DNA of 24,108 nucleotides from a virus. Taxonomy: Duplodnaviria > Heunggongvirae > Uroviricota > Caudoviricetes. The stretch is from the IMG/VR virus record IMGVR_UViG_3300039330_000027, one strand, 5' to 3'. Shown piece after piece: positions 1 to 9,789 of this stretch (positions are counted from its first letter, which is position 1; each line of letters opens with the position of its first letter). The position numbers and the translations under genes were made by a program. Below the pieces are notes generated by a model that was not told the origin of the DNA, did no database searches, and saw only the letters and a program-made list of their open reading frames with translations.

Positions 1-235
1 ACATAATCTGTCGCGAGTGCCGGAAGAGTGAAGTTATGCAGCGCATATTGTCGTTTTATCAGGGTGATGTTCGGTATTTATTGAAGTGACGAGATTAAAG
101 TGCATTAGTTCAGATGCAAATTGACATTTTGTGGCACAGGGTAGAGCTAGCGTGGTTGTCCGCTTTGTGCCAACAGCGGACATTATAGATGGTATATGTA
201 GAAAGTGAACATGCGTAGATTGTATGATTTAGCCG

Positions 236-1045
236 TCACTTAATTATTGGATAACTCACACAAGTATGACCGTTGCTTATCGCATACATTTGGTTTCCCT
301 TAAGATTTACAAATGGAAATGTCGTATACTCATAATTTATAGAGGTCATATTAAATGTAAGGAATTTATCCTCAAGTTCTAATTTTGTAGAGTGGGCAGG
401 GTATGTTCCTTCATTTTTCATTGTGATAATAAAACCGATAGGAAAAAAATGTAAAGCACAAATAAATGCCACATGTCCTTCGTTCATAAATGCTACACTT
501 TGAGCGGATATGTGCATTCTGTGTGGGTAAAACCAGTAGTAAATATCATGAGTTTCCTCAAAACTTGAATTTTTACCCAAAACATAATCCTTTAAAGGTG
601 TATAGAAGGGGCTATCTACGGGTTCTTTTTTACAATCTTCAACTGAAGTTGCTGATAGCACGTGCCCAATCATAGCCTTAGTGAAAGATATGCTATCAAA
701 AGGTATTCTAATGAATGGATATACATTCATACCATTCATATATCGACTTAACTGTTCTTTAAAGGACTTTGTTACATTTTCAATTGCAACATCGAGCCCA
801 CCTAATACCTTATTGTTACAGTGGCTGCAAATGGTTCTGAAATAAGAGCCATTTTTAGCATTTAATGGTTTAACTGGTTCCTGAATACCAAAAAATTCGC
901 TAACTGTTTTCTGCAAAACAGGGCCTAAGGTTATGGCGCACTTTGGAGGAACATGATCTTTTGTGAGCAAGCCATATTTCCCACAAATATTGCAATAACC
1001 TTCAGTAATGCCATTGTGCTTCCATCGTTCACTAATTTTCGTCAT
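236..1045 (-). CDS. Hypothetical protein with an N-terminal HNH-like zinc-finger nuclease motif (CxxC...DHxPP...CxxC) and a C-terminal domain of about 190 aa of unknown function
   Basis: 269-aa ORF on the minus strand in a markedly AT-rich block. RBS GAGGGA lies 6 nt upstream of the ATG at 1045. Motifs CNICGKYGLLTKDHVPPKC and CSHCNNK resemble an HNH core. No recognisable phage structural role. Confidence 0.6.
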   Translation of the reverse strand: MTKISERWKHNGITEGYCNICGKYGLLTKDHVPPKCAITLGPVLQKTVSEFFGIQEPVKPLNAKNGSYFRTICSHCNNKVLGGLDVAIENVTKSFKEQLSRYMNGMNVYPFIRIPFDSISFTKAMIGHVLSATSVEDCKKEPVDSPFYTPLKDYVLGKNSSFEETHDIYYWFYPHRMHISAQSVAFMNEGHVAFICALHFFPIGFIITMKNEGTYPAHSTKLELEDKFLTFNMTSINYEYTTFPFVNLKGNQMYAISNGHTCVSYPIIK

Positions 1046-1368
1046 TTTTATTCCCTCAGTAGCATAAGCTATCTATACGTTTTTTAATCCTATCAAAGAT
1101 ACAACTTAACGTCAGGAAAATGATAGTGTTTATCTAAGTAATACAATTAACTTCAACGCGTGACAGTCTGCTTTTCGCTCAAAGCGGACTAGAAGGTTAG
1201 CTTGCGTCGGACTTGGCGTATTTAAAGAAGTGCTGGTGGTGACTGGTTGTTGTGTTCCATTTCTACAGAACAAAATCACAGAAACTATACCCAATAGTTG
1301 TATCTCATCAATGATGAGACAGCCTCATATTTATCAGAACTGGTGTACGTCCAATACAGGAGGTTGTC

Positions 1369-2657: not shown

Positions 2658-2936
2658 ATGGCGCACGATACCAAATTACACAATTCTGATGATTCTGCCG
2701 TCTTTGCCAGCAGGCGCGGGCGGCGTTCCCGCACTTTCAAATCTGACTGGTTCCAGCATGACCCATGTACTGAAGAACAGGCCGAATGGCTAATTCATAA
2801 CTATCGCAGACGCGGATACGAGATTAAGAAAGCCCTCAGCCTCGATTATCGTCACTGGATAATCTATGTCAGGCTCCCTTATTCCGAACGCCCACCGCGC
2901 CCATCCCGCACATACCAGCAACGGATCTGGAGGTAA
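2658..2936 (+). CDS. Hypothetical phage protein (92 aa); positional equivalent of rem in the Qin prophage, between hok and the DUF968 gene
   Basis: ORF whose stop overlaps the RBS and start of the DUF968 gene. The start is chosen as the first ATG downstream of the terminator T-run and is uncertain. No family recognised. Confidence 0.4.
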   Translation: MAHDTKLHNSDDSAVFASRRGRRSRTFKSDWFQHDPCTEEQAEWLIHNYRRRGYEIKKALSLDYRHWIIYVRLPYSERPPRPSRTYQQRIWR

Positions 2937-2937
2937 C

Positions 2938-3993
2938 GTGCGGATATTACTTCGACCTGTTCTGGTACCGGAACTTGGGCTGGTGGTCCTTAGGCCGGGC
3001 CGTGAATCCATGCAAGTATTTCATAACCCTCGAGTGCTGGTGGAGCCTGAACCGAAAAGCATGCGCGGTCTGCCGTCCGGAGTCGTCCCTGCCGTTCGCC
3101 AGCCGCTGGCGGAGGATAAATCATTACTGCCATTTTTCAGCGATGAGCGGGTGATTCGTGCTGCTGGCGGCGCTGGGGCACTGTCTGACTGGCTGTTGCG
3201 TCATGTCAAATCCTGCCAGTGGCCTCATGGTGACTATCATCACAGTGAAATCGTCATACATCGTTACGGTACCGGCGCGATGGTGTTGTGCTGGCACTGC
3301 GACAACCAGTTGCGTGACCAGACATCCGAATCACTCGGGCAGCTTGCTCATCAAAACCTGTCAGCATGGATGATTGACGTCATACGCCATGCAATGAATG
3401 GCACGCAGGAGCGGGAATTGTCGCTGGCTGAATTATCCTGGTGGGCGGTCTGCAATCAGGTGGCGGACGCGCTTCCGGAGGCAGTATTACGTCGTTCTCT
3501 GGGGTTACGTGCGGAAAAAATCCGCTCCTTGTACCGCGAAAGCGATATCGTACCGGGAGAGCAGACCGCCACCAGCATACTGAAGCAGCGCACAAAAAAT
3601 CTTGCGCCGTTGCCTCATGCCCACCAGCAAAACCCGCCACAGGAAAAGACGGTGGTCAGCATTGCCGTTGATCCGGAGTCTCCGGTTCAGTATCTCCAGC
3701 GCCAGAAACCACAACGGGAAGAGATGCCTGTATACACGCGCTGGGTAAAAACGCAGAAATGCATGACGTGCGGTAATCAGGCAGATGATCCGCATCACAT
3801 CATTGGTCATGGCCTGGGAGGTATGGGAACAAAGGCTGATGATTTGTTTGTTATTCCGCTGTGCCGTAAATGTCATAACGAACTGCACGCCGGGGTAAAA
3901 GATTTTGAAGAAAAACACGGCAGCCAGCTGTTGTTGCTGATTCGTTTTTTAATGCACGCGAGAAATTCGGGTGTTCTGAAGTGGAAAGCATGA
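2938..3993 (+). CDS. DUF968-family phage protein (YdfU-like) with a C-terminal HNH-like motif
   Basis: GTG start at 2938 is preceded by GGAGG at 2926-2930. The C-terminus CMTCGNQADDPHHIIGHGLGG...LCRKCHNELH is characteristic of DUF968 proteins found upstream of rusA and Q in lambdoid prophages. The ORF-track start at 2866 is judged too far upstream. Confidence 0.8.
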   Translation: MRILLRPVLVPELGLVVLRPGRESMQVFHNPRVLVEPEPKSMRGLPSGVVPAVRQPLAEDKSLLPFFSDERVIRAAGGAGALSDWLLRHVKSCQWPHGDYHHSEIVIHRYGTGAMVLCWHCDNQLRDQTSESLGQLAHQNLSAWMIDVIRHAMNGTQERELSLAELSWWAVCNQVADALPEAVLRRSLGLRAEKIRSLYRESDIVPGEQTATSILKQRTKNLAPLPHAHQQNPPQEKTVVSIAVDPESPVQYLQRQKPQREEMPVYTRWVKTQKCMTCGNQADDPHHIIGHGLGGMGTKADDLFVIPLCRKCHNELHAGVKDFEEKHGSQLLLLIRFLMHARNSGVLKWKA

Positions 3994-4371: not shown

Positions 4372-4711
4372 TATGTATGAGGTTTTAGATCGCTGGGGGG
4401 CATGGGCTGCAGCAGAAAATAGCGGTGTCGATTGGCAACCGATAGCAGCGGGCTTCAAGGGGCTTTTGCCACATGGCAAAAAGTCACGTCTCCAGTGTGA
4501 TGATGATGAAGGCATCATGATAGACGGTTGTGTGGCTCGGTTGCGAAAGTATAAACCAGAGGAATATGAGCTGCTCATAGCTCACTTTGTTATTGGTGTT
4601 TCTCTACGCTCAATCGCGAAGAAACGCAGGTGCTCAGATGGAACTATAAGAAAGGAGCTGCAAACTGCATTAGGCTTTATTGATGGATGTATATGCTTGA
4701 TTCTATCATAA
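4361..4711 (+). CDS. quuD: Late-gene antitermination protein Q (phage 82 / QuuD-type)
   Basis: Translation MGRDMYEVLDRWGAWAAAENSGVDWQPIAAGFKGLLP... aligns with the remembered E. coli DLP12 QuuD. The start is taken at ATG 4361 (RBS CAGAGG upstream); the ORF track begins at GTG 4352. Confidence 0.85.
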   Translation: MGRDMYEVLDRWGAWAAAENSGVDWQPIAAGFKGLLPHGKKSRLQCDDDEGIMIDGCVARLRKYKPEEYELLIAHFVIGVSLRSIAKKRRCSDGTIRKELQTALGFIDGCICLILS

Positions 4712-4968
4712 GTTATGACTGTTACTACTCGTTTGCTTGAGCTTTCGATTCGGCGTCAGATAAAGCATCAATACGAATATTTATGTTTTTTAATAGCTTA
4801 TTGTCTAGATCGATAAGACATTGGTTGTAGTGCGCAATTTGGTCTGGTGTTAGGTTAGGGTTGGCCAGGCAGTTCGTGATGAATTCAGTCAAAAAGGAAA
4901 TTCAATCCCGCAGTGATAAGGGTGGTAAACCATGCCTGCATTGCCAGGTAGGATTTAGTGTTCGCCAT

Positions 4969-5214
4969 TCACCTTCCTGCACTTGCTTCGTTGCGAGTTT
5001 TGAGTTCGCGTAGCAGTAGCGCCAACTCTTCTGCGTCATTTTCGTTTCTAACGCTGACTTTCCTTTTAGCGGTTCTGCCTTCAGGATCGGTGTAGGTTAG
5101 TTCAATATACGCATTCGGCTTTACCCAAACCAAGAACCTAAGCACAGCATATCTGACCGTCGCTGCGACAGCCATGAATACAGTGATGTAAAGCATAATG
5201 CTTAGGATTGACAT
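4969..5214 (-). CDS. Small membrane protein (81 aa; N-terminal transmembrane helix, charged C-terminal tail), second gene of the accessory two-gene operon
   Basis: ATG lies 4 nt after the stop of the upstream gene, with AGGAAA as RBS (translational coupling). Hydrophobic N-terminus MSILSIMLYITVFMAVAATV. AT-rich. Confidence 0.6.
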   Translation of the reverse strand: MSILSIMLYITVFMAVAATVRYAVLRFLVWVKPNAYIELTYTDPEGRTAKRKVSVRNENDAEELALLLRELKTRNEASAGR

Positions 5215-5217
5215 GAT

Positions 5218-6096
5218 TTAAAGTAGTTTCCTATCTGCCGCCGCTCTGTGGCGTATAACCTTAGTAATACTATAGCGTGGTTTAGACAGCGCGCCATTTG
5301 TTTCTTTTGTTGTTTCTGTCAGTTCTACAACAAAAAGATCACCCTTACAGAATGCTGCTTGGTTGTGTTCAACCCGTTCAAGAAAAGCCTCATCTTTCAT
5401 AGATGCGCTAACTTCTTCGCCATTTGGCAGGATGATATCCCAGCTTTTGCCTTGCTTGAATCGAACATTAGCAAAATGTACATTAGCTTGGCGTGTCGTT
5501 ACGTGCGTTTTCTCGACAAAGGTGGATTTTGCAGTTTTAAAACTTACTGCTTCAGCTTGCGTCACCCTGACTACCTTATGCTTCTGCTGTGAAACTGAGA
5601 ACGTGGATGGTTTTTCAGTCTGCAGGGGTTTATAGATTAATTTATCCAGTTCTTTTCGGATGATTGGACTGGTTATTAATTTTTGAATGTCGTTACTGCA
5701 TTTAACCTTCTCACCATCCACTTCGATTTCTGCTGTATCTTTTTGTTCATCGACGACAATGGAGCTGATTTTACGCCCTTTGAGCCATTCGATTATCCCG
5801 AGTACGCCACCTGCGGCAACTCCACCACCTGCAACGAGGCCAAGGGCGTTAATAGTTTTTATGCTCCCCATCACAGCAACAAGCAAAGTAAATGAACCTT
5901 CTTTTGTTGCCTTGATGTTGACTTTCGGCTCTGCTGTTTCGCCATTAATTATTTTTTCGGCGTGTTCAATCAGGGCACTAAGAGAGGTTAAGGCTTCGCC
6001 TAATGTTTTCGCGTCGATCTGATTATCTGCGTATGCCTCTCCACCGTAGGCAATTTCGATTTCTGTTATTGGCATGTTTTCGAGTTGCTGCGTCAT
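5218..6096 (-). CDS. Hypothetical protein (about 292 aa) with a central glycine-zipper hydrophobic segment; first gene of the accessory two-gene operon
   Basis: Long minus-strand ORF antisense to the phage late operon. The start is placed at ATG 6096 (AGGA RBS 8 nt upstream) because the GTG at 6129 would sit within about 6 nt of the predicted transcription start. Segment GLVAGGGVAAGGVLGIIEWL looks membrane-inserting. No family recognised. Confidence 0.65.
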   Translation of the reverse strand: MTQQLENMPITEIEIAYGGEAYADNQIDAKTLGEALTSLSALIEHAEKIINGETAEPKVNIKATKEGSFTLLVAVMGSIKTINALGLVAGGGVAAGGVLGIIEWLKGRKISSIVVDEQKDTAEIEVDGEKVKCSNDIQKLITSPIIRKELDKLIYKPLQTEKPSTFSVSQQKHKVVRVTQAEAVSFKTAKSTFVEKTHVTTRQANVHFANVRFKQGKSWDIILPNGEEVSASMKDEAFLERVEHNQAAFCKGDLFVVELTETTKETNGALSKPRYSITKVIRHRAAADRKLL

Positions 6097-6139
6097 CAAA
6101 AGCATCCTTTGCGCAAGAGAAATAGCCACAGGATACAGA

Positions 6140-6175
6140 TAATTATGAAAAAATCACTAACGCGTACGCAAAAAC
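6140..6175 (-). promoter_or_regulatory. Putative sigma-70 promoter of the minus-strand accessory operon
   Basis: On the minus strand, -35 TTGCGT (6171..6166), an 18-nt spacer, and -10 CATAAT (6147..6142). Predicted transcription start is near 6135. Confidence 0.3.
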
Positions 6176-6217
6176 TATCTTAATCTGTTAAGAGTGGTCG
6201 CTTCGCCACACAACTTA

Positions 6218-6240
6218 AACCCGCATCAAGCGGTTTTTTT
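6218..6240 (+). terminator. Possible intrinsic terminator (short GC hairpin plus T7 run)
   Basis: Sequence aacccgc-atcaa-gcgg-ttttttt on the + strand, upstream of the tRNA promoter. The stem is only about 4 bp. Confidence 0.35.
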
Positions 6241-6322
6241 GTGTCACTTATCTCGGATAGACATGGTGAATGCGCTGGTGGAGGAGATAAGGGTGATTTT
6301 TAACCAGGTGATTTTTGAATGC

Positions 6323-6351
6323 TTGCAACATTGATTTCGTAACGTTATTAT
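6323..6351 (+). promoter_or_regulatory. Strong sigma-70-like promoter immediately upstream of the tRNA array (candidate tRNA promoter or late promoter pR')
   Basis: -35 TTGCAA (6323-6328), a 17-nt spacer, and -10 TATTAT (6346-6351). Predicted transcription start is a few nt before the first tRNA at 6361. Confidence 0.5.
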
Positions 6352-6360
6352 CCTGCGCCC

Positions 6361-6436
6361 GGCCCTTTAGCTCAGTGGTGAGAGCGAGCGACTCATAATC
6401 GCCAGGTCGCTGGTTCAAATCCAGCAAGGGCCACCA
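6361..6436 (+). tRNA. ileZ: tRNA with CAT anticodon, most similar to tRNA-Ile2 (lysidine type, ileX/ileZ-like); tRNA-Met not excluded
   Basis: Manual cloverleaf: acceptor ggccctt/aagggcc, D-arm tagctcagtggtgagagc, anticodon loop cTCATAAt, T-arm gctggTTCAAATccagc, encoded CCA. Resembles the remembered E. coli ileX. Confidence 0.8.
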
Positions 6437-6437
6437 A

Positions 6438-6514
6438 CCGCCACTAGCTCATCAGGAAAGAGCGTCAACCCTTTAAGTTGAGTGTGCGAGGTTCGAGTCC
6501 CCGGTGGCGGTCCA
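6438..6514 (+). tRNA. tRNA-like gene with atypical anticodon loop CCTTTAA (probably Lys-UUU-like but with C at position 33); assignment uncertain
   Basis: Folds into a cloverleaf: acceptor ccgccac/gtggcgg, D-stem gctc/gagc, anticodon stem tcaac/gttga, T-arm cgagg-TTCGAGT-ccccg (one mismatch), discriminator T, encoded CCA. The anticodon loop lacks the usual U33. Confidence 0.5.
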
Positions 6515-9318: not shown

Positions 9319-9438
9319 CCTCTCCATTAGTGAGTTGTATTGATCACAACTCTACAAAGAATTCATTACTGGGTAGATGAAAATAGTTTCACTATGAATG
9401 GAGGAGGCTATGTCGGTGGCTTCTTCATTGGAGTACAT

Positions 9439-9789
9439 ATGCCCCCACGAATCCCACGCGCCTGCCGTAAGCGTGGATGTGCAGGTACAACCACAGACAG
9501 TTCTGGTTACTGCGATAAACATCGTGGCGAAGGATGGGTACAGCATCAACGCGGACTGAGCCGCCACCAGCGTGGCTATGGCTCGAAATGGGATGCCATA
9601 CGTGCGCGCATACTGAAGCGTGATAATCATCTGTGTCAGAACTGCCTGCGCAATGGGAGAGCCGTTGAAGCCAGAACTGTGGACCACATCATTCCGAAAG
9701 CTCATGGTGGCACGGATGCAGACAGTAACCTGCAGAGTCTGTGCTGGCCCTGTCATAAAGCAAAAACAGCGCGCGAACGCATCAATTGA
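9439..9789 (+). CDS. Phage-associated HNH endonuclease (packaging-associated, HK97-like)
   Basis: Motifs CRKRGCAG...C, VDHIIPKAHGG and LQSLCWPCH. Sits immediately upstream of the small terminase gene. Start chosen at ATG 9439 (GGAG upstream); the ORF track begins at 9340. Confidence 0.8.
   Translation: MPPRIPRACRKRGCAGTTTDSSGYCDKHRGEGWVQHQRGLSRHQRGYGSKWDAIRARILKRDNHLCQNCLRNGRAVEARTVDHIIPKAHGGTDADSNLQSLCWPCHKAKTARERIN

Follow-up and report, generated by a model that had tools for sequence, protein, structure and literature searches.

The 24,108-nucleotide (nt) stretch of viral record IMGVR_UViG_3300039330_000027 (hereafter the window) carried, close to its first position, a minus-strand gene (236..1045) for a protein of 269 amino acids (aa) that combined an N-terminal part homologous to the HNH_5 nuclease family with a C-terminal lobe of no recognised fold. 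Residues of catalytic type were conserved across its relatives, the gene was under purifying selection, and it was laid out as a single-gene unit in places where mobile elements are known to keep defence genes. From its sequence, conservation and placement we infer nuclease activity, target and anti-phage phenotype, and on balance we favour the reading that the product is a single-protein HNH nuclease with which a resident element restricts incoming phages or other mobile DNA, in defence or exclusion.

The HNH_5-type part and the C-terminal lobe

The gene was complete inside the window, from its ATG to a stop codon at 236-238, and its product was identical to WP_000161640.1. A ribosome-binding site, GAGGG, could be read at 1053..1057 on the minus strand, 7 nt 5' of the ATG. 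The original prediction, made from the letters of this stretch, had rightly described a 269-aa minus-strand gene with a good ribosome-binding site and an AT-rich composition: G+C content (GC) was 0.36-0.37 over positions 1-1000, compared with 0.49-0.58 in the structural genes and about 51% in the phage core. Its concern that the gene might be a fragment of a larger one running out of the window can be set aside, as the open reading frame (ORF) was whole. All examined copies of the gene were intact, and the ratio of nonsynonymous to synonymous substitution rates (dN/dS) against six orthologues was 0.05-0.17, which indicates a functional protein under strong purifying selection.

The HNH_5-type part spanned residues ~14-103 (737..1006, minus strand) and comprised, in order, a zinc knuckle (C18/C21), a strand ending in D30-H31, a ~35-aa insert with a helix, a second strand, C73/C76-N77 opening a further helix, and D85. 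Motif 1, C18-N-I-C21-x8-D30-H31-V-P-P34 (944..994, minus strand), was invariant or at least 90% conserved and corresponded to HNH_5 profile positions 1-23. Motif 2, N65-G-x-x-F-x-T-I-C73-x-x-C76-N77-x3-L-G-x2-D85 (791..853, minus strand), corresponded to positions 19-56 in relatives, and its Cys pair read C73-S-H-C76, followed by N77. The CxxC, DHVPP and CxxC elements claimed earlier were present, but eight residues and not ten separated C21 from D30. Across 118 divergent sequences, 21-45% identical to the query, C18, H31, P34, C73, C76, N77 and P202 were invariant (118/118), well in excess of what chance would give. At least 90% conservation was found for G16, C21, L27, D30, P33, G66, L81, G82 and D85 and, beyond the HNH part, for G127, H128, A131, W171 and P244. 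This alignment refutes the possibility, raised with the original prediction, that the Cys and His residues are not conserved among homologues.

When the same 118 members were scanned one by one against Pfam, HNH_5 (PF14279) was matched by 80 (counted at an expect value (E) up to 0.1; best E 1.9e-6), Endonuclease_7 by nine and HNH by seven, whereas the PtuB models of Septu matched four (best E 5.4e-5). The HNH_5 model has 56 positions and a gathering threshold of 27.5 bits; one member (P0159) passed this curated cutoff with 27.9 bits, and another (P0181) scored 26.6 bits while covering positions 1-53, which supports the HNH assignment by way of relatives. Separate members matched either the first half of the model (1-23) or the second (19-56) because the insert splits the two halves. 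Between the DHxPP motif and the second CxxC the median spacing was 38 residues, and in the members with the shortest inserts the match ran over the whole model. Since short-insert relatives reached the threshold, the N-terminal ~85 residues can be read as an HNH_5-type domain split by an insert of ~35 aa, and identification of this part as an HNH_5-type nuclease domain is well supported on sequence grounds. An AlphaFold model (predicted local distance difference test 85; predicted template modelling score (pTM) 0.87) placed the elements in the order expected of a zinc-finger HNH, with D30-H31 closing strand 24-32 and N77 in helix 74-80, right after C76. The family shared with HNH_5 the signature CxxC...[DE]H-x-x-P...CxxCN-x3-LG and differed from it by the insert, ~30-40 residues long, and by an obligatory C-terminal part of ~165 aa.

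That C-terminal alpha/beta part (residues 104-269; 239..736, minus strand) had conserved G127-H128, W171, Y173, P202 and P244, and no sequence or structural relative was found for it, including any solved chain in PDB searches. A profile built from the C-terminal part alone retrieved 158 proteins; among the 120 matches listed, all but P0256 belonged to the same family of ~224-310 aa, and none but P0256 had the lobe without an HNH part. P0256 (256 aa, from a single 1,083-bp contig of the European Nucleotide Archive (ENA)) joined a phosphoribulokinase-like P-loop N-terminal half to the lobe of this family. We rejected it as a true phosphoribulokinase fusion, as it came from one contig of ~1 kb and probably reflects a disrupted gene or a chimeric assembly. 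N-terminal extensions of longer members were likewise discarded as domain fusions, being low-complexity sequence or miscalled starts. The predicted structure formed a single compact body, with the pTM of 0.87 given above. The view that a nuclease had been fused to a separate sensor domain was not borne out, given the compact model and the restriction of HNH-free lobes to one probable chimera. To judge from sequences and model, the architecture is that of an obligate two-lobed enzyme and not of a nuclease plus a swappable sensor. As the lobe packs on the nuclease and always accompanies it, its role is most likely substrate recognition or gating.

The protein had been called an orphan, which is true of its annotation only. 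At 90% identity, homologues fell into 93 clusters of about 270 aa each, which carried database names such as 'hypothetical', 'chaperonin' and 'metal-binding protein'. An exhaustive HMMER pass, reduced to representatives at 50% identity, gave 634 proteins, of which 296 had E up to 1e-10; almost all of the 634 were 260-290 aa long. The gene was present in 141 of 5,426 complete E. coli genomes (about 2.6%), in 120 chromosomal and 29 plasmid places, and relatives extended to Betaproteobacteria and Cyanobacteria. The sole strong direct match of the query was a full-length PHROG of unknown function. Searches of the query against Pfam, NCBIfam, PADLOC and PDB sequences returned nothing significant (best in Pfam, HNH_5 at E 0.29), and the family profile had no match among PDB sequences. 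In PADLOC-DB v2.0.0 the query had no match, and the 118 relatives had only weak HNH-level matches to PtuB and PDC-M01B. The family thus has no entry in Pfam, NCBIfam or PADLOC and no description in the literature searched; single-gene prophage nuclease candidates are familiar as a kind. A second subfamily, comprising P0242 (E. coli, 267 aa) and P0237 (Citrobacter, 267 aa) with 56-58% identity over the C-terminal lobe, was also frequent in E. coli (215 member sequences).

Three HNH-type proteins were encoded in the window. The noted likeness between the cassette protein and the packaging HNH (9340..9789) was real: the latter reads CQNC-x12-DHIIPKAHGG...N..LCWPCH, and its final ligand is His where the cassette protein has Asn. 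The third, a 375-aa protein at 2866-3993, ended with a classical HNH motif (CMTCG...DPHHII...CRKCHNELH), and its counterparts in related prophages were annotated as DUF968/YdfU.

An exchangeable cassette bounded by 24-bp palindromes

The gene lay in an exchangeable cassette of 1032 bp, both boundary sites included (158..1189), which consisted of a 3' spacer, the gene and an upstream region of ~120 nt. A repeat scan and cross-context comparison placed its 3' boundary at one 24-bp palindrome, the A-site GTCCGCTTTGTGCCAACAGCGGAC (158..181), and its 5' boundary at another, the B-site GTCTGCTTTTCGCTCAAAGCGGAC (1166..1189). The two were the cores of a 37-nt inverted repeat (arms 145-181 and 1166-1202), and the pattern GTCYGC-N12-GCRGAC occurred twice in the window, against 0.01 occurrences expected by chance. 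Two classes of this palindrome, A (GTCYGCTYTGTGCCARNAGCRGAC) and B (GTCTGCTTTTCGCTCWWAGCGGAC), flanked cargo in lambdoid phages, P2-like phages and IncF plasmids; besides the window, such sites were present in L060 (1658-1681/3459-3482), L002, L004, L005, L017 and the viral loci from L063 onward (L numbers denote our loci).

Homology between contexts ended at or within the sites, extending over 149/166-1189 in plasmids and 158-1131 in the P2-like phage pro147. The lambdoid phage Tritos aligned with the window over positions 1-184, resumed the match at 1166 and had another cargo of 1.8 kb between the same A/B sites. In plasmids, the same site types stood at other module junctions and half-sites travelled with their flanks; between two plasmids the HNH, int and hyp modules were permuted with unchanged orientation. 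The A-site alone was found in at least 120 viral contigs (52 lambdoid-type, 36 P2-type and 32 other), 44 of which had an A-to-B pair; once the window and Tritos were added, the set came to 46 cassettes, which fell into 21 sequence types. The HNH type was the most frequent of them (10 of 46), with nine copies of equal length (1032 bp) in viral contigs. Cargo orientation between A/B sites was not fixed. Neither palindrome was called in a terminator scan, and both lacked a T-run. Within the 1-kb cassette we found no RNA antitoxin and no tandem or direct repeats, Rfam detecting only the neighbouring sok.

A small tyrosine recombinase of ~200 aa from the Phage_integrase family (WP_001752951.1) formed a module of its own among A/B-type sites in plasmids and an Erwinia locus (L005 6994-7596; L002 5302-5904; L017 455-1063; L044 302-937) and is a candidate recombinase for these sites. 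As a general vehicle of cassettes in phages it was rejected, since no more than 3 of the 120 viral loci had it. Exchange may proceed by site-specific recombination or, equally well, by recombination over the short homology that the conserved palindromes provide. Nilsson et al. are said to have proposed site-specific recombination in the P2 accessory region in 2004, and the A/B palindromes are possibly the sites which that proposal implied. Like integron cassettes and engineered recombinase-mediated cassette exchange, the system swaps promoter-poor single-gene units at short palindromic sites. Its likeness to exchange at heterospecific sites lies in the segregation of half-sites with their flanks and in the two spacer classes, A and B, that bracket each cassette. 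An integron cassette, in contrast, has one 3' attC, whereas A/B cassettes had a 24-bp site at each end and no attC R''/L''/L'/R' consensus. Integrons also depend on IntI, which was absent from the A/B loci, where only the 200-aa Phage_integrase-family protein occurred, in some plasmid loci.

Genomic placement and proposed role

The gene was a single gene in all annotated contexts, and these were diverse. The identical protein, or one nearly so, was encoded in the window, a lambdoid prophage, between replication genes and hokD; in pro147 between tail-fibre genes and FI; and in IncF-type plasmids next to IS26. Sixty plasmids (E. coli, Klebsiella, Shigella and others) carried it, 44 of them conjugative. 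Of the more distant members, one occupied the int-psu interval of a P4-like satellite and another lay terminally in an inovirus prophage of Vibrio; a Pseudomonas copy was part of a serine-recombinase island that interrupts an FKBP gene, and a Plesiomonas copy shared its island with HEPN_AbiU2 and Shedu. When all ORFs within 6 kb were clustered across 57 loci, no recurrent partner gene was found; the commonest neighbours were resolvases (nine loci), integrases and UmuDC. A neighbour cluster that resembled a conserved partner (cluster 2) was dismissed as an antisense ORF inside the HNH cassette gene itself. The homologue in Plesiomonas shigelloides (L011; CP027852.1, 746947-763759) sat amid small, mostly same-strand genes in an arrangement like that of a defence island or cassette array, with Fic, NUDIX, HEPN_AbiU2, PLD-like, Shedu SduA_C and IS110 genes.

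Several of these places are known for defence genes. The P2 slot taken by the gene in pro147, from tail fibre to FI, is that of Z/fun and the 'TO region'; Z/fun blocks T5, and its protein differs from the HNH cassette protein. In P4, published work has identified the interval between int and psu as the main hotspot for defence genes, and in a 2026 study six of eight randomly picked unknown loci from the P4 hotspot protected against phages. The newly named P4 systems Crouga, Bandua, Aernus, Toga, Reve and Hailong were considered and set aside, as their proteins differ from the HNH cassette protein. P2 variable loci, the tail-gene region included, are reported to hold anti-phage genes in work cited by Rousset et al. 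(Nilsson et al. 2004; Christie and Calendar 2016).

Alternative cargos in the A/B slot were also defence-like in part. The Tritos cargo was a 444-aa FRG-domain protein (L060 1827-3161, minus strand) matching the PADLOC defence candidate PDC-S15 at E 1e-98; it is unrelated to the HNH cassette protein, yet it occupied exactly the same slot and was likewise a single minus-strand gene. Five of ten further cargos, hand-picked so that the rate is biased, matched PADLOC models: a TIR protein (PDC-S66 / ThsB-like), PDC-S35 (E 1e-69), PDC-S02, PDC-S33 and an HNH-ATPase that resembles the endonuclease effectors of cyclic-oligonucleotide-based anti-phage signalling systems (CBASS). With Tritos, six of eleven tested cargos matched defence or candidate-defence models. 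Loci L094, L086, L111, L127, L085, L139 and L090 held cassette types 3, 10, 13, 15, 9, 5 and 11, respectively, and included a TIR protein with a transmembrane segment, a TIR-like PDC-S35 protein accompanied by another ORF, and an HNH protein with an ATPase. By eye, one cargo looked RelA/SpoT-like (the match to PDC-S33) and several looked like PD-(D/E)xK nucleases, with no PADLOC match; all of these are candidates for further defence genes. Placement in the P4 hotspot, in the P2 slot and in a lambdoid slot with defence-like alternatives makes an anti-phage or exclusion role plausible.

We postulate that the protein is a metal-dependent nuclease that works on its own and belongs to the HNH (beta-beta-alpha-metal) superfamily, with HNH_5 as its nearest Pfam family. 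C18, C21, C73 and C76 would hold a structural zinc, H31 would serve as general base, and D30 and N77, perhaps with D85, would bind the catalytic metal, while the C-terminal lobe of ~165 residues would most likely recognise the substrate or gate access to it. Its action would most likely take place in the cell that harbours the prophage or plasmid, as defence or exclusion by a single gene. The protein might directly cleave nucleic acid that a phage or another mobile element brings in. Alternatively, it might sense infection and then cut host nucleic acid or tRNA, in abortive infection.

Two known nucleases offer points of comparison. PtuB, used in anti-phage defence by Septu and retron-Eco7, is likewise HNH_5-like. 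In contrast to the cassette gene, for which no recurrent neighbour was found in 57 loci, PtuB works with an adjacently encoded PtuA ATPase, and it has no relation to the extra C-terminal part of the cassette protein. McrA of the e14 prophage, a Type IV modification-dependent enzyme, is a single-gene HNH protein of about 270-280 aa that has no methyltransferase partner. Its HNH lies at the C-terminus and its modified-DNA-binding domain at the N-terminus, whereas the HNH of the cassette protein is N-terminal. No modified-base reader domain (SRA, PUA-like or similar) was recognised in the cassette protein. The PtuB of retron-Eco7 degrades host tRNA-Tyr, so that such nucleases need not target DNA (PMC12673091), and the substrate of the cassette nuclease could accordingly be DNA or RNA.

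Besides the biased choice of cargos, several observations weigh against this reading. Residence in a hotspot is suggestive and falls short of proof. The slot also held non-defence cargo (NUDIX+HAD, MFS+LysR, BCCT+DUF2254, glyoxalase and QueH), so that it appears enriched for defence candidates and not dedicated to defence. A promoter scan upstream of the gene gave no convincing sigma-70 promoter, and for a nuclease that is constitutively present neither an immunity partner nor a mechanism for telling self from non-self was evident. The query itself scored only 11.6 bits on HNH_5, below the threshold, because of the ~30-40-residue insert between the two strands, and its homology is thus established via relatives. 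Neither the protein accession nor the PHROG number was found in the searchable literature, and WP_000161640.1 was not in the parts of the Rousset 2022 and DefensePredictor supplements that were searched.

Other explanations account for some of the same observations. A selfish, homing-type HNH endonuclease would cut slots or alleles without the cassette, such as an A/B slot filled by other cargo, and have repair copy the cassette in, and its spread would then reflect drive, with no benefit to the host. The abundance of the HNH cassette among A-B cargos and its recurrence, with 94-100% identity, at the same slot in phages of unrelated backbone and in plasmids would suit such drive, as would the similar size of free-standing HNH homing endonucleases. 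We nevertheless consider homing unlikely. Distant members occurred where there are no A/B sites (the P4 hotspot, the inovirus and islands), and neither the query nor 156 member scans gave a Pfam match to NUMOD, IENR1 or a helix-turn-helix domain. Homing genes typically go through a cycle of decay, to which the strong purifying selection and the intact copies do not conform, and the gene had a moron-like composition and lay on the strand opposite to the phage genes. The HNH scaffold might instead have been retained in a non-catalytic zinc-ribbon protein that binds nucleic acid or regulates, a reading that fits the sub-threshold HNH_5 score, the disruption of the motif by a long insert and the NCBI name 'metal-binding protein'. 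As H31 and N77 were invariant and D30 and D85 at least 90% conserved down to 21% identity, we regard it as very improbable.

Two further alternatives concern the element that carries the gene. As an addiction toxin or host-directed nuclease, the protein would stabilise its carrier through post-segregational killing or exclusion of competing plasmids. Its frequency on conjugative IncF plasmids next to RelBE and PemIK modules and its position beside hok/sok in the prophage are in keeping with this, but the cassette contained no antitoxin gene, RNA or repeat and the 57 loci no conserved partner, which leaves such a maintenance function a slim chance. It is similarly improbable that the gene supplies an accessory nuclease for the DNA metabolism of the element (recombination, replication restart or help in packaging) or for counter-defence. 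HNH proteins do assist terminases in HK97-like phages, and in lambdoid prophages the gene lay directly downstream of replication genes. However, the window already had its packaging HNH, unrelated cargo took the slot in sibling phages, where the gene is dispensable, and the family was also carried by plasmids, satellites and filamentous prophages with quite different DNA metabolism.

If the protein does act in defence, it adds a compact single-protein system of 269 aa whose C-terminal lobe must hold the key to target recognition, and which conjugative plasmids carry in E. coli, Klebsiella and Shigella, while PADLOC, Pfam and NCBIfam do not at present detect it. More tentatively, it may be the first representative of a widespread family of single-gene immune systems that has not been described before and pairs an HNH_5-derived nuclease with a recognition lobe of new fold. 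In this proposal, which we offer with some doubt, the E. coli copies would be exchanged between lambdoid phages, P2-like phages and IncF plasmids at heterospecific 24-bp palindromes, and the site pair would define a pool of defence cassettes, so far unmapped, that unrelated mobile elements share. The A/B pair, GTCYGC-N12-GCRGAC in two spacer classes, provides a sequence handle on the accessory cargo of lambdoid and P2-like phages, with at least 21 cargo types seen between the sites, many of them unannotated, and is a concrete candidate route by which genes hop between phages and plasmids.

Other features of the window

A hok/sok type I locus lay beside the cassette at 1501-1825, comprising the sok RNA (1501-1675; Rfam RF01794, 110 bits) and a Mok/Hok reading frame (1613-1825). 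Two further low-GC stretches contained possible accessory genes. The first, at 2001-2500 (0.40 GC), overlapped a 130-aa ORF (1969-2361) with a lipoprotein-like signal, MKKLVLVAGVMIATVMLGGC, and the second, at 4501-6500 (0.42-0.46), held a 303-aa minus-strand ORF (5218-6129).

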